DNA from: a virus
Lineage: Duplodnaviria; Heunggongvirae; Uroviricota; Caudoviricetes
Reading direction: 5' to 3' (one strand)
Virus record (IMG/VR): IMGVR_UViG_2563366820_000006
Span: 1-38,853 of that record
Length of the DNA stretch: 38,853 nucleotides
Made by a program: the position numbers and the translations under genes. Positions 3,192-38,853 of the stretch are shown here, piece after piece; position 1 is the first letter of the stretch, and every line of letters begins with the position of its first letter. The notes beneath the pieces were generated by a model. That model did not search any database. It was not told the DNA's origin and saw nothing but the letters and a program-made list of their open reading frames with translations.

Positions 3192-3746
3192 TTATTTATC
3201 TCCTGCCGGAAACCTCTGATACAAAGTCGATACGCCAACATCATAGATAATCGCAACTTTCTGGCGCGGAACTCCTGATGCAATTAATCGTCCGGCTTGT
3301 GCCCATTGTTCTGGTGTAAGTTTGGGACGACGTCCACCAATTCGTCCCTGTGCGCGAGCAGCTTCCAGTCCAGCTTTTGTTCGTTCAACAATCAGTTCTC
3401 GTTCCATTTCAGCCAGGGCCCCCATCACATGAAAGAAAAAGCGCCCCATTGGGGTACTGGTATCAATTGAATCCGTCAGACTACGAAAGTTGATGCCTCG
3501 TTCGCGCAACTCCTCCACCAGCACGACAAGATGCCGCATACTGCGCCCCAGCCGGTCCAGTTTCCAGACCACCAGCGTGTCACCTGCCGATAATGTCCTG
3601 AGCAGTTTTTTCAGTCCCGGCCTTTCGGACTTTGTACCGCTTATCTTGTCTTCAAAAATCAGCTCGCATCCTGCACAGTTCAGCGCATTACGTTGTAGAT
3701 CTGTGTTCTGGTCATTTGTTGATACGCGTACATAGCCAATAAGCAT
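3192..3746 (-). CDS. Site-specific DNA invertase, serine recombinase (Hin/Gin/Cin/Pin family)
   Basis: 184 aa starting MLIGYVRVSTNDQ (catalytic Ser region), resolvase core and C-terminal HTH; GGGGGA Shine-Dalgarno before the ATG at 3746; adjacent to tail-fibre cassettes. Confidence 0.92.
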   Translation of the reverse strand: MLIGYVRVSTNDQNTDLQRNALNCAGCELIFEDKISGTKSERPGLKKLLRTLSAGDTLVVWKLDRLGRSMRHLVVLVEELRERGINFRSLTDSIDTSTPMGRFFFHVMGALAEMERELIVERTKAGLEAARAQGRIGGRRPKLTPEQWAQAGRLIASGVPRQKVAIIYDVGVSTLYQRFPAGDK

Positions 3747-3789
3747 GGTAGATCCCCCTGACAAAAGCAGGAATGATGCCATTTGCTCG

Positions 3790-10995: not shown

Positions 10996-11007
10996 ATATA
11001 CTCCGAA

Positions 11008-11038
11008 AATTAAAAAGCCACCTATTAGAAGGTGGCCT
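11008..11038 (-). terminator. Rho-independent terminator of the moron gene
   Basis: On the minus strand: GCCACC-loop-GGTGGC hairpin followed by TTTTTAATTTT, immediately after the stop of the 176-aa ORF. Confidence 0.6.
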
Positions 11039-11056
11039 TGTAATGAATTTTATTAA

Positions 11057-11587
11057 TTAGCGAGTCAGAAACAACGAATCTTTATACTTTTGCTGTTGTT
11101 CATTTAAATACTTAGCTGTTTCATCGCTGGCAAATGGAAATATTACCGTATTTTTAGGCATGGTAATTTCTTTTTTGTCCAGCGTCAGAGTAAACATAGG
11201 AACATACTGAGCAGAGTAACGCACCGCAGAAACGAGCTCTAGTTTAGACTCTTCAATAACACTTAAATTATCCAGGCTAACTTTCTCTTCATCTTTTTTC
11301 TTTGACGCATTTAAAGTTTTTATTACTTTATTTAATTTCTCCTGAAAATCCTCCTTAAAGTTTTCAGGATTGCCGTCGACAACAAGAATCTGTTCACCCT
11401 GATTATCTGGAAAAATAATCTTTGCACTTATCAATTTATTTTCTTTATAAACATCACCAAGTTTTATGGCTCCTCCAGATAACTGAATAATATGTTCATC
11501 TTTAAAGGAGATGTTGCCAGAGATTATGAGAGATGAAAAAACAGCCGCTGCTCCAAGAATTACACTTGCTGTGATATAGCCTTTCAT
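11057..11587 (-). CDS. Secreted protein of unknown function (moron inserted in the tail operon)
   Basis: 176 aa; N-terminal signal-peptide-like hydrophobic segment MKGYITASVILGAAAVFSSLIISG; strongly AT-rich versus flanking tail genes; own upstream intergenic region and own terminator. Confidence 0.7.
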   Translation of the reverse strand: MKGYITASVILGAAAVFSSLIISGNISFKDEHIIQLSGGAIKLGDVYKENKLISAKIIFPDNQGEQILVVDGNPENFKEDFQEKLNKVIKTLNASKKKDEEKVSLDNLSVIEESKLELVSAVRYSAQYVPMFTLTLDKKEITMPKNTVIFPFASDETAKYLNEQQQKYKDSLFLTR

Positions 11588-11678
11588 TTTTCGCCTATTA
11601 ACATTTTTCTAAATGTGCATTAATTCTATCACTCTATTTATGACTTACAACCAGCAATACCTGTGAGGGGAATCCTGG

Positions 11679-13511
11679 CTACCAAAATCGGGTATAGCCA
11701 ACATCGTGATTTATATCAATGCCACTGGAGCGTGTTTCCGTAACCCGCATACCTGGTGGCATATTTATAAATGATACCTTGATCTCACCATCAACTTTTG
11801 GCGCAGAAGCTTTGTTAATCATGAAGGGATTCGGGCCTGTGGCATCGGAGGCGTTGTTTGACTGAGCCGGATCTACCGCCTGATAAGGTGTGTATCCCCG
11901 TGCCGGTATTCCCGTCCCATAAGCATCATAAGCACCCGCGCCCCACTGCGCCGAGTTAATGGTATCGACCGTGTCACAGGAACTGTCGGTAAACCATTCA
12001 ATAATCGGCTTCAGCTTATCCCACATATCCTGAAACCACTTAACAACCGGTCCCCAGTTATTGATCACCATCCCCAGCGGCGACCAGGCAAAAACCTTCT
12101 TCAGAAGTTCCCGGCCAGCCTCAAAATAAGGACCAATGGTTTCCCAGAGCTTCTTGAAATAAGGTCCGACAACATCCCAGTTAGTGATAATTAATCCCGC
12201 AGCCAGAGCAATCGCCGTCGCAATCATGCCAATCGGCGTCATCGACATGATCCTGCTGACAATACTGATGGCACTGCCCACGCCCATCAATCCCAGTTTC
12301 AGAATCGCAAGACCGGCAGCAAGCCCGACGACGCCGCGAATAACCCGGGGATTTTCATCCGCAAACTTCGTGAATTTCTCCCCCAACTCCCCCAGCCATT
12401 GTGTGATATTTTTAGCGTCACCAGAAAATGCGCCGCCAATAGCCGCAAGGCCGTTAGTTGCGGTCCCTGTCATTGCCTCCCACAGGTTGGACAGCGTACC
12501 AAGCTGTGCCTGAACACGTTTATTCAGGCTGGCCTGTTTATTCATCTTCTGCTGGATCTGATCGTAGCCATCCTTTCCTTTATCGATCAGTGCATTGACC
12601 ACCTGAAGGGTTTCGGCATCATCACCAAATATTGCCTTAAGTACACCTGTTCGCTTAACGTCGGTCAGTTTTCGCAGCTTTGCCAGTTGCCTGAACATGT
12701 TATCAAGACCGCCAAAACTTCCTTTGCCGTCAGTAAAATCGAGCTGTACCCCGAGTTTCTGGCGGGCCATAACTTTATTAACGTCCCTGATTTTCTTAAC
12801 GCTTAATCCGGACTGGATAACTTTTCGCAGGGCATTACCTGCCGACTCCCCGTTCATCCCCATCTGATCCATCATGACGCTGATGGGGGCAAGGCTCTGT
12901 GCAGCCTGAAGACCATCCTTGTTCACCATCTTCAGAACAGAACTGGTTTTAGTGAAGAAGGACAACATGTTGGTATCGTCAACGCCCAGATAAAACGCCT
13001 TCTGGATAGTGTCGAACAGCCCCATCATGTCTTCTGACGCCGTTCCGGTAGCATCCTGCATCTTTGCAGCAAACTCAGCAGCCGCTTCCGGTGTTTTTTT
13101 CAGTTGTACCGCAAGATAAGCTGTCGCTTTACCCACACCGCCAAGAATGTTTTCTGCCGGGATCCCCTGACGCACCAGCATCTGCATCATGTTCTGGAAA
13201 TCAGCCGTTGTACCGGGTAGCTGGTTACCCAGACCAATAGCCAGTTTATTGATGTCCTGAAAGCGCTTTCCGACCTCACCGTTCGCATCCATCATGGCAA
13301 CTTTCAGCCCGGTGGCGGCGTTTTCCTGATCGGCATAAGATTTCAGGGAAAGCGTCAGACCCGCAGCCAGTCCGCCACCAAGCGCCAGCCCACCCTGTGA
13401 CGCTTCTTCCGCCTGGCGTTTAAATCCCCGGATTTTCTTTTGTATTTTCGACAGCGCGGGAGAAAGCCTGTCGACACCGGTGATCAACGCCTTAAGCTCA
13501 AATTCAGCCAT
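11679..13511 (-). CDS. Tail tape measure protein
   Basis: 610 aa, Ala/Gly-rich with a hydrophobic central segment, located downstream of the tail-chaperone frameshift pair. Confidence 0.85.
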   Translation of the reverse strand: MAEFELKALITGVDRLSPALSKIQKKIRGFKRQAEEASQGGLALGGGLAAGLTLSLKSYADQENAATGLKVAMMDANGEVGKRFQDINKLAIGLGNQLPGTTADFQNMMQMLVRQGIPAENILGGVGKATAYLAVQLKKTPEAAAEFAAKMQDATGTASEDMMGLFDTIQKAFYLGVDDTNMLSFFTKTSSVLKMVNKDGLQAAQSLAPISVMMDQMGMNGESAGNALRKVIQSGLSVKKIRDVNKVMARQKLGVQLDFTDGKGSFGGLDNMFRQLAKLRKLTDVKRTGVLKAIFGDDAETLQVVNALIDKGKDGYDQIQQKMNKQASLNKRVQAQLGTLSNLWEAMTGTATNGLAAIGGAFSGDAKNITQWLGELGEKFTKFADENPRVIRGVVGLAAGLAILKLGLMGVGSAISIVSRIMSMTPIGMIATAIALAAGLIITNWDVVGPYFKKLWETIGPYFEAGRELLKKVFAWSPLGMVINNWGPVVKWFQDMWDKLKPIIEWFTDSSCDTVDTINSAQWGAGAYDAYGTGIPARGYTPYQAVDPAQSNNASDATGPNPFMINKASAPKVDGEIKVSFINMPPGMRVTETRSSGIDINHDVGYTRFW

Positions 13512-23966: not shown

Positions 23967-24239
23967 CTATTTGCCTGCTGCCAGCAAAGCGTTACGGCGC
24001 ATCTCGATACTTCTAATCCCCGCTTTGTCAATATTGCATTGTCCCAACGCCGAAAGCAGGCTCACATTCAGATCCAGACTGGCCCCATAGGTCAGCGGAT
24101 CGGGAATAACTGGCTGGGGAGTTTCAGTAGTCAGGCTTGCTGGCAACGGTACCGCCGGAATAGGCACGTAAACTGTTCGCGTACTTCCGCAACCGGTCAG
24201 CAGCGGCAGCAGGCACAGGACGTGAAGCACAATCATCAT
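23967..24239 (-). CDS. o-spanin (Rz1-like outer-membrane lipoprotein), embedded in the i-spanin gene
   Basis: MMIVLHVLCLLPLLTGC: signal peptide plus lipobox LTGC; Pro-rich mature part; sits in a different frame inside the Rz-like gene. Confidence 0.6.
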   Translation of the reverse strand: MMIVLHVLCLLPLLTGCGSTRTVYVPIPAVPLPASLTTETPQPVIPDPLTYGASLDLNVSLLSALGQCNIDKAGIRSIEMRRNALLAAGK

Positions 24240-24516
24240 CCGCAACAGCCACTTTGATATCTTCCTGGGTTCTCTGTGACTCCAGTGCGATCTGCTGTTT
24301 TGCATGCTGGTTAGCCTCCAGAACTGTATTTACGATTTGTATTGATTGCAGGATGTTACGGGTAATAGCTGTTGCTGATTCAGCATTTCGTACAGCCTCA
24401 TCAGCACGCTCCTTTTCGTGCTGATATTTGCTGTAGTAATGCCCGGCAGACCAGATGAAGGAACCAATGACGGTAACAAAGAAAGCAACAATAACCAGCT
24501 TATATCTCAGCTTCAT
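24124..24516 (-). CDS. i-spanin (Rz-like)
   Basis: 130 aa; N-terminal transmembrane helix then coiled-coil-like periplasmic domain; follows the endolysin. Confidence 0.7.
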   Translation of the reverse strand: MKLRYKLVIVAFFVTVIGSFIWSAGHYYSKYQHEKERADEAVRNAESATAITRNILQSIQIVNTVLEANQHAKQQIALESQRTQEDIKVAVADDDCASRPVPAAAADRLRKYANSLRAYSGGTVASKPDY

Positions 24517-24976
24517 TTACTACCCCACCAGCTTCTTTAAATCGGGCAATCAGGTCACCGATTTTATGTTCATACTGACCGTAACCTGCACCAGGTAACG
24601 ACGCCCAGATATTGCTGCAACGGTCGATTGCCTGACGAATATTGCCGCGGTCAATCATCGGTAAAGCGCCACGCTCTTTAATCTGCTGCAGAGCTACAGC
24701 GTCCTGGCTTTTCGGAGAGAAGTCTCTCAGGCCAAGCTGCTTGCGGTAGGCATCCCACCAACGGGAAAGAAGCTGGTAACGTCCAGCTGCGGTTGATTTA
24801 AGTTGCGGGTTTAGCATGACAAGTTTGCGAGGGTGATCGGAGTAATCAGTGAACAGTTCACCACCAACAATAACATCATAACCGTGGTTACGTGTCGGTT
24901 GTCGCCCGTTATCCGTTCCTTCTGACCATGCCACCATATCGAGGAAAGCTTTACGCTGGGAATTTAGTACCTGCAT
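24500..24976 (-). CDS. Endolysin, lambda R-type lytic transglycosylase
   Basis: 158 aa near-colinear with lambda R (NSQRKAFLDMVAWSEGTDNGRQPTRNHGYDVIVGGELFTDYSDHPRK..). Confidence 0.92.
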   Translation of the reverse strand: MQVLNSQRKAFLDMVAWSEGTDNGRQPTRNHGYDVIVGGELFTDYSDHPRKLVMLNPQLKSTAAGRYQLLSRWWDAYRKQLGLRDFSPKSQDAVALQQIKERGALPMIDRGNIRQAIDRCSNIWASLPGAGYGQYEHKIGDLIARFKEAGGVVNEAEI

Positions 24977-24979
24977 AAA

Positions 24980-25306
24980 TTACTCCTTAGAGCCACCAAA
25001 CTTATTACCGATTACTCTCATTGCAGCCCCACGAATAGCATCGACACCGATCAACCCAACGCCACCACCAATGGCAACAGAAAGCGATTTAGGCCATCCG
25101 ACATACTCAAGAGCGGATGCAAAAGTCAGCGTCAGAGCACCACAGAGTAGAATTTCGAGTGTTTTTCGCTTCCAGCCACCACCACCGCCAAAATAGGCAA
25201 TGCGCAAACCAGCCATAACAATCGACATAATCACTGCGCCCAGCGGTGTGTCTCCACGCCACCAGCTCTGGACCAACTCCAGCCAGGTATTTGGGTTATG
25301 AGGCAT
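24980..25306 (-). CDS. Holin
   Basis: 108 aa with transmembrane segments and a charged C-terminus; immediately upstream of the endolysin; GAGGTGAGAG Shine-Dalgarno. Confidence 0.75.
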   Translation of the reverse strand: MPHNPNTWLELVQSWWRGDTPLGAVIMSIVMAGLRIAYFGGGGGWKRKTLEILLCGALTLTFASALEYVGWPKSLSVAIGGGVGLIGVDAIRGAAMRVIGNKFGGSKE

Positions 25307-25761: not shown

Positions 25762-26778
25762 ATGTACAATTTGGATGTATCAAAAAAAGAAATCGGTAGA
25801 GTCGGTGATCGGCTCGCATCATTAGCAGAGAGTAATCAAACCCTCCCAGAGAGCGATCTTAATATTTTGCACTCGTGGAGAATGCTACATCTATATCCTT
25901 TAACTAAGCTCACTGAATATTTAACTAGAGAAGCAAATTCAATAAATCAAAATTGTTTAATATCATCAAGAATTAAACGACTCCCATCTATAATATCAAA
26001 ACTTCAACGTTTTGAAGATATGAAGCTAAACAAAATGCAGGATTTGGGGGGGTGTAGAGCTATACTTAGCAATCTTGATGAAGTATATAATACATATGAT
26101 AATATTAAAAAATTAAAATTTAAGCATCAAATAGTCAGAACAGATGATTACATTAAACAAGTAAAAGACTCTGGATATAGAAGTTTACATTTAGTTTATT
26201 CTTTTCAGAATGAGAAGCATGTTAATTTAAATGGGTTAAAAATCGAAATTCAACTCAGAACAGCTATACAACACAGTTGGGCTACTGCGGTTGAAATGGT
26301 TGGCCTTTTTAGGAAAGAATCTCTAAAATCTAGTTTTGGAGATCCTGATTGGTTACGTTTCTTTGAGCTAGTGTCAGAGTTATTTTATGGCATAGAATCA
26401 GGGAAATCCGTTGGTCATTATATGAAAACATCCAGTGACCTAAAAATATTAACAGAAAAACTCAACGTATTCACAATACTTGAAGCCTACAACAAAGTAG
26501 CAAGCCACATTGATTCCTCTGATACATACACCTCGGGTTTTTGCGTTATAATAGTCGATACAGAAAAGCGCAAAATGAATATAAAAAGTTTTCCTGTCCA
26601 TAGCCATAAAGCAGCATCTGATTTTTATATAAAAGAAGAAAAAAATTGTGAAGGGATAAAAGGATATGAGGTAGCCATGGTATCAGTTGATGATATATCA
26701 AATTTAAAAAATGCGTACCCTGCATTCTTCCTAGACACAAAAACATTCTTAAATAACCTGAGTAGATTTATTTTCTAA
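25762..26778 (+). CDS. RelA/SpoT-homologue (RSH) synthetase-domain protein; CapRel-like fused toxSAS toxin-antitoxin candidate
   Basis: 338 aa with the ordered RelA/SpoT synthetase motifs SRIKRLPSIISKL, DLGGCRAIL, GYRSLHLVY and EIQLRTAIQHSWA; about 150 aa C-terminal extension; no adjacent small ORF; AT-rich; opposite strand to the flanking Q and lysis genes. Confidence 0.8.
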   Translation: MYNLDVSKKEIGRVGDRLASLAESNQTLPESDLNILHSWRMLHLYPLTKLTEYLTREANSINQNCLISSRIKRLPSIISKLQRFEDMKLNKMQDLGGCRAILSNLDEVYNTYDNIKKLKFKHQIVRTDDYIKQVKDSGYRSLHLVYSFQNEKHVNLNGLKIEIQLRTAIQHSWATAVEMVGLFRKESLKSSFGDPDWLRFFELVSELFYGIESGKSVGHYMKTSSDLKILTEKLNVFTILEAYNKVASHIDSSDTYTSGFCVIIVDTEKRKMNIKSFPVHSHKAASDFYIKEEKNCEGIKGYEVAMVSVDDISNLKNAYPAFFLDTKTFLNNLSRFIF

Positions 26779-26833: not shown

Positions 26834-27187
26834 TCACACTGCGTGAATTATTGATAAAACACCCTCAACAAATCCCATTGCAGTTTGCAGTTCCTTCCTA
26901 ATTGTGCCATCTGAACATTTCCGCTTCCTTGCGATTGTACGGAGTGAAATACCGATAACAAAGTGAGCGATGATCAGCTCATACTCTTCTGGTTTATATT
27001 TACGCAACCGAGCCACACAACTGTCTATCATAATGCCTTCGTCATCATCACACTGAATCCGGGACTTTTTGCCATGAGGTAAAAGCCCCTTGAAGCCAGC
27101 GGCTACCGGTTGCCAATCCACACCACTGTTCTCTGCCGCAGCCCACGCTCCCCAACGGTCTAATACTTCATACATATCACGCATCAA
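26834..27187 (-). CDS. Late-gene antiterminator Q (QuuD/YbcQ-like)
   Basis: 117 aa; MRDMYEVLDRWGAWAA .. AAGFKGL .. CDDDEGIMID .. ARLRKYKPEE closely follows the DLP12 QuuD pattern. Confidence 0.8.
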   Translation of the reverse strand: MMRDMYEVLDRWGAWAAAENSGVDWQPVAAGFKGLLPHGKKSRIQCDDDEGIMIDSCVARLRKYKPEEYELIIAHFVIGISLRTIARKRKCSDGTIRKELQTAMGFVEGVLSIIHAV

Positions 27188-35727: not shown

Positions 35728-35934
35728 ATGCTGAACCTCGATTGTGTTCCTATCTCAACTTATTGCAAAGAAACTGGCGAAACTCCTGAAGCAATAAACA
35801 AACGTGTACAGCGCGGTGTTTGGCGTGAAGGTGTTCAGGTTTTAAAGGTTGAAGGCGTTAAGGAGAGGTGGATTGATCTTAGTGAGGTTGCAAAATGGGC
35901 CAGACAAAACTGCTCAAACTACCGCGCGGCGTAA
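35728..35934 (+). CDS. Excisionase-like DNA-binding protein (Xis)
   Basis: 68 aa from the ATG with GGAG Shine-Dalgarno; basic winged-helix-like sequence with conserved Trp residues; immediately upstream of and overlapping int. Confidence 0.6.
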   Translation: MLNLDCVPISTYCKETGETPEAINKRVQRGVWREGVQVLKVEGVKERWIDLSEVAKWARQNCSNYRAA

Positions 35935-37061
35935 CAATCAGGAAACACCGCCAGGGCGAAACGATCAATATAACTTTCACCTACAAAGGCGTTAAATGTC
36001 GTGAGCCTCTTTCCAATCTGGAAGTAACACCAAAGAACATTAAATACGCCGAGCGCACACTCGGCGAAATTCATAATAAGATCGAAAGGGGAACATTCAT
36101 TTATGCGGAATATTTTCCCCGTTCTGCTCGTTTGAAAATTTTTGGTAATGCTGCTGCAGGCAAAACGGTAAAAATGTACCTGGACGAATACCTTGAAATC
36201 TGCGAAACGAGAAAACTTTCACCATCTACGATTGGTGGTTATAAAAAATGCCGTAGTGCGTTAGCCTCACTCCACATTTGCCCTGCAAGTGAATTAACAC
36301 CAGCAATCCTGAAAGCGTGGATTCAAAGCCAGAAAACGACCTTAAAAACAATTCGCAACCAGTTATCTTTCCTGCGGTCAGCACTTGATGAAGCCGTAAC
36401 CGATGGGGTACTTCAAATTAACCCCGTATCGTTGGTAACTGCTTCGCGCTACCAAAGTGATAAGTCAGAAGCAGAAAGCAGCTATGTGGTTGATCCGCTA
36501 TCACCAGCAGAAGTTGATGCATTACTAGCAGCAGCCGGAAACAAACAATGGGAAAATCTGTTCCGGTTCGCCATACATACAGGCCTGCGTAGTTCTGAAT
36601 TATGTGCCCTACGATGGCATGATATCGACTTTGTTGGAAAAACAGCCCATGTTCAGAGCGCAAGTGTTGTCGGAGTTATCAAAGGAACAAAGACAAAAGC
36701 CGGTACCCGTAAAGTTGAACTGACTGAAGAAGCAATGTTGGCGTTGATAAACCAGAAGCCATTTACATTCATGAAGGATGCTACTGTCTTTGAAGATCCA
36801 AAGACCAATAAACCCTGGGCAAGTGCTGATGCAATTAGGAAAAAAGCATGGGTGCCAACATTGCGAAAAGCAGGTATTCGTTACAGAAACCCATATCAAA
36901 CCAGGCATACATTCGCCACCAGACATATCAGCCGGGGAGCAAACCTGTTTTGGCTTGCAGCTCAAATGGGGCATAAAGGGCCTGAGATGCTTTTCAGGCA
37001 CTATGGCTCATATCTGAAGGAATATGATGGACAAACAAGCTTGAAGAAGATAACAATATAA
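35895..37061 (+). CDS. Tyrosine integrase (phage integrase family)
   Basis: 388 aa; N-terminal arm-binding-type domain; C-terminal catalytic region with conserved R .. H-x-x-R .. Y pattern (..TRHTFATRH .. LFRHYGSY). Confidence 0.92.
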   Translation: MGQTKLLKLPRGVTIRKHRQGETINITFTYKGVKCREPLSNLEVTPKNIKYAERTLGEIHNKIERGTFIYAEYFPRSARLKIFGNAAAGKTVKMYLDEYLEICETRKLSPSTIGGYKKCRSALASLHICPASELTPAILKAWIQSQKTTLKTIRNQLSFLRSALDEAVTDGVLQINPVSLVTASRYQSDKSEAESSYVVDPLSPAEVDALLAAAGNKQWENLFRFAIHTGLRSSELCALRWHDIDFVGKTAHVQSASVVGVIKGTKTKAGTRKVELTEEAMLALINQKPFTFMKDATVFEDPKTNKPWASADAIRKKAWVPTLRKAGIRYRNPYQTRHTFATRHISRGANLFWLAAQMGHKGPEMLFRHYGSYLKEYDGQTSLKKITI

Positions 37062-37079
37062 TCCAAGCATGAAACTATT

Positions 37080-37103
37080 GGCCACAATTTGTGGCCATTT
37101 TAC
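37080..37103 (+). terminator. Hairpin / terminator-like element after int
   Basis: Perfect palindrome GGCCACAA-t-TTGTGGCC followed by ATTTTAC. Confidence 0.45.
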
Positions 37104-37119
37104 GGAGCAAGATAGAAAC

Positions 37120-38853
37120 ATGGCAAATCAAATTACCAAACTAAAAAATATAAATGTTGTGAAGTTTCGCGGACTGAAAAATATAAACATCGAGTTTGGT
37201 TCTCGCCTAACTGTTATTTGTGGTAAAAATGGCACATCTAAATCCACAATTCTTGGCATTATCGCCCAAATATTTAGCTTTACAAAGGACTTTACCAAAA
37301 ACCCTGAGACTGATTTAACACAATATAAAACATTAACAAATGGCAGCTTCAAGTCAGCTTTCAGCGAACATTTTAGGCTTTCAGAACAATTTGATGTTCC
37401 TGGTTCAATGGACGTCAAAATTAGTGTCTATGATGGTGCATCGAACAAACATCTTGAAAAACTAACATTAGGTTTATACAGCTACAGTGACAGAGATAAA
37501 TCAAGGCCTGTAGTCAGGGGAAATGATTCAATACCGGAAAAAAACCAAAGTAGAAACGTTACTCATCCTGTTATTTTTTTAAGCTTAGCACGACTTCTTC
37601 CTATTACATTAAGGACTGATTACTCAACACGGGATGTTCAGTACATCAATGAAAATTCTGATGAAATCAGAATGATGAGTAACCAACTCTTACTAAAAAA
37701 CAATGGAAGCTCAGTAACAGCAACAAAAGGTACTATCGATTCAATGGTTGTCCATGGTGACAATTATGATCACCAATCAGTATCTGTTGGTGAAGATAAT
37801 GTTGGACAATTAATCCAAGCAATTTTTTCATTTAAAAGATTGAAGGAAACTTATTCTGATTATCATGGCGGAATATTGTTAATTGATGAAGCCGATGCAG
37901 GTCTTTTCCCTGCTGCACAGTTAGAGCTAATTAATATTCTAACTAAAGCAGCAAAACAATACGATCTGCAAATAATCATGACCTCGCACTCTCCATTAAT
38001 AATAGAGGATATCTATAATCGTTCAAAACAAGATAGTGATAGCTTTAAAACAATATATCTTACAGACACATATGGAGATATTAAAACAAAGAATAATCTT
38101 TCATGGACAGATATCCACGCTGATTTACATGTTGAAACTGTAAAAATTAATGATGACATTTGTCTTCCAAAGGCAAATGTATATTTTGAAGACAAAGAAG
38201 GTTTCGACTTTTTCAAACAATTGATAACAGATCGTAAAATAAATAAAATATTAAATCCATTAGGGAATATAAATATTAGCTGCTCTGCCATGCTTGACTT
38301 AATGGCAAGAAAAATACCAGAATTTACAGCTAAAAGCTTGATCGTCTTAGACGGTGATGTTGTTCACGACAATAGTGCTAATGCAAAAAAAGCCAAAAAA
38401 GAAAAAAACTTATGTTTGCTTCCAAGCACCTTACCTCCAGACCAAATGATTTTTGAGTTTTTATATAATTTACCACCTGATGATGCATATTGGGAAAATA
38501 AAAATAAATTTACAAAAGCTGTTTTTATGAAAACAGCTAAAGACATAATTGCAACGCTAAAGATTGGTAACGCTCCGATTGATTTAAAAATCCTTATAGA
38601 TAATTATAAAAAAGTTAACAAAAACCATGGCGGGATAGTTAGAAAACTGTTTAAAGATTTTGCACATACGACTCAATTTCAGGCCCAAGTAAAAGGGCGA
38701 GTTAAAGATAACCCATATCGATATTGGGTCGAGAAAAATCCTGTGCAATCGGATAGCTTCAAGAATGAACTAATAAAGAGTCTTAAAGTTATTATGACAA
38801 GTGGACATGGTGTCGATTCTGCTACCATCTCATCATATCTGTCAGATAACTAA
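37120..38853 (+). CDS. ABC-type ATPase fused to a C-terminal TOPRIM-like domain (OLD-family-like; P2 Old / PARIS-like defence candidate)
   Basis: Start taken at MANQITKLKNINVVKF (tracked ORF starts at 37069). Walker A GKNGTSKST; Walker B ILLIDEADAGL; H-loop-like MTSHSP; C-terminal acidic motifs YFEDKEG and LIVLDGD about 45 aa apart. AT-rich; ends at the window edge. Confidence 0.75.
   Translation: MANQITKLKNINVVKFRGLKNINIEFGSRLTVICGKNGTSKSTILGIIAQIFSFTKDFTKNPETDLTQYKTLTNGSFKSAFSEHFRLSEQFDVPGSMDVKISVYDGASNKHLEKLTLGLYSYSDRDKSRPVVRGNDSIPEKNQSRNVTHPVIFLSLARLLPITLRTDYSTRDVQYINENSDEIRMMSNQLLLKNNGSSVTATKGTIDSMVVHGDNYDHQSVSVGEDNVGQLIQAIFSFKRLKETYSDYHGGILLIDEADAGLFPAAQLELINILTKAAKQYDLQIIMTSHSPLIIEDIYNRSKQDSDSFKTIYLTDTYGDIKTKNNLSWTDIHADLHVETVKINDDICLPKANVYFEDKEGFDFFKQLITDRKINKILNPLGNINISCSAMLDLMARKIPEFTAKSLIVLDGDVVHDNSANAKKAKKEKNLCLLPSTLPPDQMIFEFLYNLPPDDAYWENKNKFTKAVFMKTAKDIIATLKIGNAPIDLKILIDNYKKVNKNHGGIVRKLFKDFAHTTQFQAQVKGRVKDNPYRYWVEKNPVQSDSFKNELIKSLKVIMTSGHGVDSATISSYLSDN

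Follow-up and report, generated by a model that had tools for sequence, protein, structure and literature searches.

A prophage OLD-clade ABC ATPase with a probable TOPRIM-like nuclease half lies beside a D12-class adenine methylase in a candidate two-gene anti-phage cassette

Proteins combining an ABC ATPase with a TOPRIM domain (Old, Gabija, PARIS, the retron effectors and HEC-04) are among the commonest anti-phage modules, and how they avoid acting on self is a standing question. According to recent literature on these proteins, DNA states are sensed by the ABC domain, and the TOPRIM effector may cut tRNA (P2 Old, AriB) or DNA (GajA). The published OLD classification, classes 1 to 4, comprises solitary, helicase-linked, retron-linked and PARIS contexts, none of which is methylase-linked. 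HEC-04 (Hma-embedded candidate 04, Payne et al.) was found in methylase-containing (Hma) loci (bioRxiv 10.1101/2024.01.29.577857), and IbfA of plasmid pUA1135 is a reported HEC-04 homologue which acts as a single-gene defence (PMC12111858). Here we describe an ABC ATPase gene (37120-38853, + strand) at the right-hand end of a 38,853-nucleotide stretch of tailed-phage DNA, IMG/VR record IMGVR_UViG_2563366820_000006, referred to below as the window. Our best reading of its sequence is a variation, linked to a methylase, on the ABC-ATPase/TOPRIM defence theme, which would act like restriction-modification (R-M).

The open reading frame (ORF) containing this gene runs from 37069 to 38853 (+), encodes 594 residues and has its stop codon at the last base of the window, as claimed in an initial annotation made from the window's sequence alone. 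That annotation had also allowed for a downstream partner beyond the window and had proposed looking for a helicase or another gene in the next 3 kb. No helicase was found there, but a partner gene was. In the Escherichia coli genomes NWU_3, 042 and JJ1886, a 299-residue 'DNA adenine methylase' begins 80 nt past the ATPase stop. Citrobacter phage phiNP has a 293-residue ORF at the same place, 89% identical to the E. coli methylase; it carries no annotation in the GenBank record (OR565852). The methylase gene thus lies just past the window's end (11039-11938 in the NWU_3 locus, L001, and 8038-8919 in L002). The E. coli and phiNP proteins both match the D12 class (PF02086, 2e-19) and contain RYPGGK and DPPY motifs, with a score of 54 bits compared to a subfamily cut-off of 115 bits. 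A PDB sequence search with the methylase gave 7m6b as the sole relative, and did not retrieve E. coli Dam, T4 Dam or DpnM. The methylase is divergent from Dam, its N6-adenine class being predicted from sequence, and GATC specificity should therefore not be assumed.

The left end of the window is host DNA, ie smpB (1-483) followed by the tmRNA gene ssrA (698-1060), with the prophage inserted at the ssrA 3' end. The attL core is the last 28 nt of that gene (1034-1061, +). The same 28 nt recur 79 nt past the methylase stop in the three E. coli genomes (attR core, L001 12017-12044) and stand at both ends of the phiNP record; the off-window methylase is therefore inside the prophage. In JJ1886 the core genes glaH, lhgO and gabD come directly after the prophage. 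The NWU_3 prophage is not colinear with the window, and its att site was located through the ssrA repeat. The layout is attL(ssrA) ... xis-int-ATPase-methylase-attR, and the int-to-att position originally proposed for the gene was confirmed, with a tyrosine integrase directly upstream (35895-37061, +; Pfam Arm-DNA-bind_2 and Phage_integrase) and the attR repeat past the methylase. Relative to the prophage, the window thus extends too far on the left and stops about 1.1 kb too early on the right. Four further IMG/VR contigs (L021, L024, L027 and L030) end exactly 3 nt past the ATPase match, as the window does, and prophage-boundary callers therefore appear to cut between the two genes and to hide the partner, a recurrent artefact. 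The GC content of the two genes is nearly equal, 0.332 for the ATPase and 0.333 for the methylase. A promoter-like site with a TG-extended -10 (TGGCCA ... TATACT) was noted in the 80-nt gap (L001 10984-11012), and a terminator-like hairpin, AAGCCCTGCGGGCTT and then a T-run, approximately 170 nt past the methylase stop (L001 12104-12118). Both do no more than match a consensus, and overall such matches were not more numerous than expected from shuffling.

The association of the two genes was surveyed in 80 viral loci with a relative of the ATPase, of which four were uninformative and 76 were counted. A D12 methylase gene adjoins that of the ATPase in 65 of the 76, downstream on the same strand in 62, downstream on the opposite strand in two, and upstream in one. 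Among 5,426 complete E. coli genomes there are 85 carriers, and all 85 have both genes. The cassette was found in enteroaggregative E. coli 042, in the ST131 strains JJ1886/JJ1887, in phiNP, and in Pseudomonas and Yersinia prophages. Its placement varies. P. aeruginosa prophages carry the ATPase and then the methylase beside an S24 repressor, and Yersinia prophages (eg L009) carry the cassette between the holin and antiterminator Q genes, so that three prophage slots are used, namely int-att, next to the CI repressor, and holin-Q. The gene order is reversed in Halomonas, with an 8-nt gap, and the two genes are convergent in Enterovibrio. Adjacency is kept at 35-50% protein identity and across phage backbones, slots, orders and orientations. 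Pairwise identities of the ATPases and of the methylases are correlated (Pearson 0.79, Mantel p 0.001, 65 unique pairs), and no near-identical ATPases with dissimilar methylases were present among these pairs. Five distant relatives were informative: three have an adjacent D12 methylase, in both orders, one has it at 2 kb and one is without. Counted from the other side, an ATPase of this family adjoins the methylase relative in 47 of 69 informative viral loci. No helicase, retron reverse transcriptase (RT) or separate AriB was adjacent in any gene context inspected. From these comparisons the methylase looks like a dedicated partner, and the pair like a two-gene, R-M-style anti-phage cassette.

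Residue numbers throughout refer to a start at the ATG at 37120, ie to a protein of 577 residues (coding sequence plus stop, 37120-38853, +). RefSeq places the start of the identical gene in E. coli genomes at this second ATG, and aligned homologues begin at an equivalent 'MA(N)..TKLK'; because of this it is most likely the true start. The match to phrog_3940, which covers the full length of the protein (1.9e-200) and is labelled as function unknown in PHROGs, and the AlphaFold 2 (AF2) model also support the assignment. The in-frame 17-codon upstream extension (37069-37119, +) is probably not translated, judging from the RefSeq start and the homologue N-termini; some database entries of homologues use the longer form of 594-595 residues. 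Of the 577 to 594 residues allowed initially, both lengths do occur, and the shorter is most likely the real one. The gene is AT-rich, as had been noted, with a GC content of 0.332, where int has 0.443 and the window as a whole 0.499. A perfect palindrome of 9+9 nt, TGGCCACAA-T-TTGTGGCCA, lies between int and the ATPase start (37079-37097), within the 17-codon extension and 5' of the probable coding sequence. The hairpin originally reported to separate the two genes is thus present as a repeat, but it is not conserved in other contexts: it has one mismatch in phiNP and was not found 5' of the homologous gene in Pseudomonas, Yersinia or Enterovibrio contexts. It is therefore a feature of the int region, and was ruled out as part of the gene module. 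It could be an int terminator or operator.

The N-terminal part of the protein, residues ~1-315 (37120-38064), is by sequence an ABC ATPase of the OLD/PtuA/AriA/GajA clade. All the motifs quoted for the protein in the initial annotation were found, and its ABC/SMC-type assignment stood in each of the searches. Walker A is GKNGTSKST (G35-T43, 37222-37248), in which G35, K36, N37, G38, T39, K41 and S42 are invariant; invariance here and in the C-terminal half was scored over 59 full-length homologues from Enterobacterales, Pseudomonas, Halomonas, Enterovibrio and Lysinibacillus, which are approximately 50% identical. Walker B and the D-loop are ILLIDEADAGL (I252-L262, 37873-37905), which aligns to Walker B of PtuA and P2 Old, and the insertion between Walker A and Walker B, given earlier as about 200 residues, was counted at ~210. 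The H-loop TSHSP (T288-P292, 37981-37995), with T288, H290, S291 and P292 invariant, was aligned to 'TTHSP' of PtuA. From its position, SVSVGEDNVGQ (S220-Q230, 37777-37809; S222, G224, E225, D226, N227, G229 and Q230 invariant) would be the ABC signature motif. AAA_15 (3.8e-15) and AAA_21 (4e-12) both matched above the Pfam cut-off, whereas the OLD TOPRIM model (PF20469) and DUF4435, for which searches had likewise been proposed, did not match. PADLOC models for PtuA, AriA, GajA, HEC-04, NsnB and ATPase-Toprim_I-B matched at 1e-13 to 4e-20. In PDB sequence searches the matches to PtuA, OLD and AriA span the Walker regions only. With hhalign, residues 6-297 were aligned to positions 3-339 of the P2 Old family profile (Prob 92%), and there are weak N-terminal matches to RecF, SMC and Rad50. 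Identity as PtuA itself was ruled out, the NCBIfam equivalog score being 65 bits against a cut-off of 500 bits.

The C-terminal half consists of an alpha/beta core, residues ~350-450 (38167-38469), of the order strand-helix-strand-helix-strand-helix-strand, followed by an all-helical domain, residues ~466-577 (38515-38850). The core contains YFED (Y355-D358, 38182-38193), in which E357, where strand 1 ends, is the candidate for the TOPRIM glutamate; DGD (D411-D413, 38350-38358), right after strand 3, which is the candidate TOPRIM DxD; and LPxxLPPDQ (L434-Q442, 38419-38445), after strand 4. Y355, E357, D358, D411, D413, L434, P435, P440 and Q442 are invariant, as are R508, F511 and K512 in the helical domain. 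The initial annotation had considered that conserved acidic residues might be missing from this half; E357, D358, D411 and D413 are instead unchanged in all 59 homologues. A profile of the C-terminal half retrieved 497 representative proteins. In the 52 most remote of these relatives, mostly ~500-530 residues long and with a mean column identity of 24%, the ED, the DxD and the downstream P are still invariant, and the spacing from E to DxD is 50-58 residues. The acidic motifs are therefore not due to chance. Of the C-terminal profile, only the initial ~150 positions are matched by the distant relatives, and their helical tail domain therefore differs.

The placement of these residues agrees with that described for TOPRIM domains, in which strand 1 is followed by a Glu and strand 3 by DxD. 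In the AF2 models (mean pLDDT, the predicted local distance difference test score, 88.4 for this protein and 88-89 for the models examined) E357 comes directly after strand 1 and D411-G-D413 directly after strand 3, with the all-helical domain beyond. The spacing from E to DxD amounts to 54 residues in the present protein, to 55 in P2 Old, as counted from its sequence, and to 56 in HEC-04. Two fold-search methods ranked the TOPRIM regions of OLD, AriB and retron-Eco2 first or close to first, with the longest alignments, and the top Foldseek matches were OLD C-terminal regions. By sequence, the C-terminal profile matches the relative P0217 at 1.2e-18, and the ATPase-free C-terminus of P0217 matches positions 311-406 of the HEC-04 profile at 5e-4; there is therefore a weak, transitive link to the HEC-04 TOPRIM domain, in which E319, D375 and D377 were experimentally required for defence (bioRxiv 10.1101/2024.01.29.577857). 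We regard the C-terminal half as a probable metal-dependent nuclease of a highly divergent, TOPRIM-like type, on the evidence of motifs and predicted structures.

The reading we favour, at a probability of roughly 0.5, is that the pair forms a methylation-gated defence made up of an OLD-clade ATPase-nuclease and a D12 methylase. The ATPase gene would encode the effector, in which the ABC ATPase is joined to the TOPRIM-like nuclease core and the helical domain. The second gene, which is followed by the terminator-like hairpin and attR, would encode a divergent D12-class N6-adenine methyltransferase that marks the DNA of the host and of the prophage at a target sequence of its own. Probably an oligomer, as other OLD-type ABC proteins are, the ATPase-nuclease would engage DNA through ATP binding or hydrolysis, and DNA without the mark, such as that of an incoming phage, would license cutting. 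Cleavage of nucleic acid would take place at the E357 / D411xD413 site. Its substrate would be DNA in a restriction-like scheme, or possibly tRNA, as reported for P2 Old and AriB. The pairing, the co-divergence, the variable gene order and, as described below, the loci with the methylase alone and the second recurrent methylase partner all fit the logic of R-M.

Several observations weigh against methylation gating by this pair. Firstly, 11 viral loci, which form one subclade of ~40% identity, have no adjacent methylase (L076-L085 and L087; eg L078 3815-5659). This subclade keeps YxED, LDGD and LPxxLPPDQ and sits directly after a CI-type repressor (helix-turn-helix plus Peptidase_S24). An N6_N4 methylase is found 2.6-3.3 kb away in only two of the 11 loci, and no match to the subclade was found in the phage collection. 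The distant relative P0187 is solo, and HEC-04 defends without a cognate methylase (bioRxiv 10.1101/2024.01.29.577857). The nuclease is therefore not strictly dependent on methylase protection, and coupling is not obligatory. Secondly, between 22 and 24 methylase loci lack an ATPase of this family, co-divergence demonstrates linkage rather than functional coupling, and in EC958, an ST131 strain, the prophage methylases that had been studied were silent at the level of transcription. Thirdly, no TOPRIM, OLD or DUF4435 model matched the C-terminal domain in Pfam, PADLOC or PDB sequence searches made with the query and with its distant relatives; the half on its own, or as a profile, gave zero matches of any kind in the same searches. 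PF20469 is present in every P2 Old relative and in no member of the present ATPase family, and was not found by Pfam search in the full-length protein, in its C-terminus alone or in the 52 distant relatives. Alignment of the C-terminus to the P2 Old TOPRIM domain with hhalign, using the near-set profile and a diverse-set profile of 79 sequences, was null (Prob 0.1-0.5%); the only local seed placed IVLDGD on ILADCD, and a low-confidence extension paired E357 with the Glu of 'LLVEG'. The fold matches to the OLD and AriB TOPRIM domains were marginal, generic CheY-like folds scoring equally high. What stands of the TOPRIM assignment in the initial annotation is thus the invariance, strand placement and spacing of the acidic residues, but not a match to any known TOPRIM-type model.

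Where the ATPase is missing, the methylase often has another neighbour. In 19 of 24 such loci, a homologous protein of ~390-560 residues is encoded directly upstream of the methylase (L139 2372-3928; L120 481-1959; L155 1326-2780; L177 2217-3938; L012 8689-10209, - strand). Among its invariant residues are E-G-N-R-R and a stretch resembling KH.GQ.GG. The EGNRR motif raised a ParB-like assignment, which found no support in PDB sequence or profile searches. In the Enterovibrio locus this protein occurs together with both the methylase and the ATPase.

The most serious alternative, although we consider it unlikely, is that the ATPase is a stand-alone abortive effector of the OLD/HEC-04/IbfA kind. 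Its ABC domain would sense a phage cue, for example a phage protein or some structure in the DNA. Its TOPRIM-like domain would then cut tRNA or DNA and arrest the cell, with the methylase being a separate moron, either an orphan or an anti-restriction gene, that only shares the cassette. The methylase-less subclade with its full set of catalytic motifs, and the solo P0187, are what this would predict; HEC-04 and IbfA are ATPase-TOPRIM defences encoded by one gene each, P2 Old senses DNA and acts as an abortive tRNase, and prophage methylases are common and often silent. Independent cargo would not account well for adjacency that survives 35-50% identity, different backbones and slots, and changes of order and orientation, nor for co-divergence without partner swapping among near relatives, and none of the 85 E. 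coli carriers has one gene alone.

A further version, which we think improbable, keeps the methylation gate of the favoured scheme and changes its outcome. The family would then belong to the OLD-like ABC/TOPRIM immune sensors as a branch gated by methylation, in which the ABC domain reads the D12 self mark, and unmarked, replicating phage DNA releases an effector that acts abortively, for example by tRNA cleavage as in P2 Old and AriB, and not by DNA restriction. If true, it would combine epigenetic self/non-self discrimination with abortive infection in two genes and would be a new class of OLD-like context.

Rather improbable too is a C-terminal domain that is not a nuclease. The protein would then bind DNA, driven by ATP, as a partner of the methylase, for example as a loader, a specificity factor or a non-nucleolytic exclusion factor as in BREX- or Hma-type systems, and the acidic residues would bind metal or nucleotide in another capacity. 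The failure of every nuclease model to match, and fold scores no better than those of CheY-like domains, which also have an acidic metal site, would be expected in that case, and methylase-containing ABC-ATPase systems without clear nucleases do exist. Set against this, the E...DxD pattern with its strand 1/3 placement and 54-residue spacing matches TOPRIM nucleases, OLD C-terminal regions lead the Foldseek matches, the weak link to HEC-04 leads to a TOPRIM domain validated by mutation, and this ATPase clade regularly carries nuclease effectors.

The gene had been filed initially with class 1 OLD, fused PARIS AriA-AriB or GajA-like proteins. The architecture is indeed the same, with 577 residues compared to 586 in P2 Old, the ATPase is homologous, and PADLOC AriA, AriAB and GajA models match the ATPase. 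Membership in the strict sense is nevertheless very improbable, as the defining domain or partner was sought in each case and not found: PF20469, C-terminal profile similarity and DUF4435 are lacking, there is no adjacent helicase, retron RT or AriB, and the gene is not solitary. A housekeeping ABC/RecF-like protein with conserved chromosomal synteny, to which the weak RecF, SMC and Rad50 N-terminal matches might point, can be dismissed, since the gene is low-GC cargo of only 85 of 5,426 E. coli genomes, always in prophage or mobile contexts and at varying positions.

Other cargo was noted in the prophage and next to it. A low-GC ORF of 338 residues (25762-26778, +) gave a full-length match to PDB entries of a 'RelA/SpoT family protein' (7ztb, 9erv; 2e-37), of which 7ztb is CapRel(SJ46), a fused toxin-antitoxin anti-phage sensor. 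From this match the prophage probably has in this ORF another defence gene. It is flanked by lysis genes (24124-25306, -) and by an ORF (26834-27187, -) in the position of antiterminator Q; in the Yersinia prophage L009, it is the ATPase-methylase cassette that lies between the holin and Q genes. Near attL, three low-GC ORFs of 165, 124 and 114 residues (1270-2696) lie between ssrA and a Hin/Gin-type serine invertase (3192-3782, -), and may be further cargo at the other end of the prophage. The GC content dips to 0.394 at 11001-12000, in the structural-gene region, compared with flanks of ~0.56. Beyond attR, NWU_3 (L001 12249-13490) and 042 (L003 12210-13439) have a second, different integrase followed by variable cargo, which indicates tandem elements at the ssrA site. 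The cargo in 042 includes a recombinase and two ParB-like genes, with a type I R-M subunit M gene further downstream. JJ1886 has no second integrase after attR.

No description of the ATPase-methylase pair was found in the open-access text searched, which included OLD reviews, the BREX/Menshen papers and the ST131 methylome paper, and PADLOC-DB 2.0.0 has no model specific to the present ATPase family. The phiNP paper lists the gene merely as 'ATPase, fitness'. The ST131 methylome study gives a putative type II methylase, M.Eco1886ORF14565P, with no motif assigned; this may be the methylase of the JJ1886 cassette. A widespread branch with its own adenine methylase suggests an epigenetic self mark as an answer to self-avoidance for that branch. 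Since pathogenic E. coli lineages, phiNP, and Pseudomonas and Yersinia prophages carry it, the cassette could have a bearing on host range in phage therapy and on how methylomes are interpreted.

Compared to the described OLD classes, the protein has the N-terminal OLD-type ABC ATPase but differs in its context. Class 1 genes are solitary, whereas here a D12 methylase is adjacent (65/76 viral loci, 85/85 in E. coli). Like P2 Old, the protein is prophage lysogenic-conversion cargo of ~580 residues with an OLD-type ABC ATPase, an E...DxD pattern and a weakly similar fold; unlike P2 Old, it has no PF20469, and the two C-termini are without profile similarity. The UvrD/PcrA-like helicase (GajB) of class 2 OLD and Gabija was not adjacent in the contexts inspected. 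For class 3 OLD, ie retron I-B, no RT gene was present in the neighbourhoods inspected, in which no search for a non-coding RNA was run; the PADLOC ATPase-Toprim_I-B match (1.3e-13) spans residues 258-452 and vanishes once the ATPase part is removed. PARIS differs in that neither DUF4435, by Pfam and PADLOC, nor a separate AriB was found, the AriA and AriAB matches covering the ATPase only. In place of the PARIS and Gabija partners there is a DNA methylase. Septu has an adjacent HNH gene (PtuB), which is missing here although PtuA was the top PADLOC/NCBIfam match (65 of 500 bits).

There is a close likeness in architecture to HEC-04 and IbfA, in which one polypeptide carries an ABC ATPase together with a TOPRIM-type domain, with an E-to-DxD spacing in HEC-04 of 56 against 54 here. 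The PADLOC HEC-04 model matched the query at 2e-16 in three stretches, best at the N-terminus, and did not match the C-terminus alone; it matched 48 of the 52 distant relatives, including through the catalytic stretch. IbfA was compared by description only, a tblastn search with the distant relatives P0217 and P0201 having reached no IncI1 plasmid. The present protein is ~80 residues longer than HEC-04, with a distinct helical tail, and while HEC-04 and IbfA are single genes, most members of the present family come with a D12 methylase of their own. In that respect it resembles type II R-M, where a cognate methylase with DPPY lies beside a nuclease, here a putative one, on mobile DNA in variable order, including convergent; strict co-occurrence in E. 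coli and the existence of methylase-only loci are further points of likeness. It differs from type II R-M in that the putative nuclease is an ATP-binding ABC/TOPRIM-like protein and not PD-(D/E)XK, HNH or GIY-YIG, and in having a methylase-less subclade. PrrC and RloC offer another parallel, as ABC ATPase-regulated nucleases genetically coupled to a DNA-modification module. However, their partners are complete type I/III R-M systems and their effector is an anticodon nuclease of another fold, whereas the partner here is a lone methylase.

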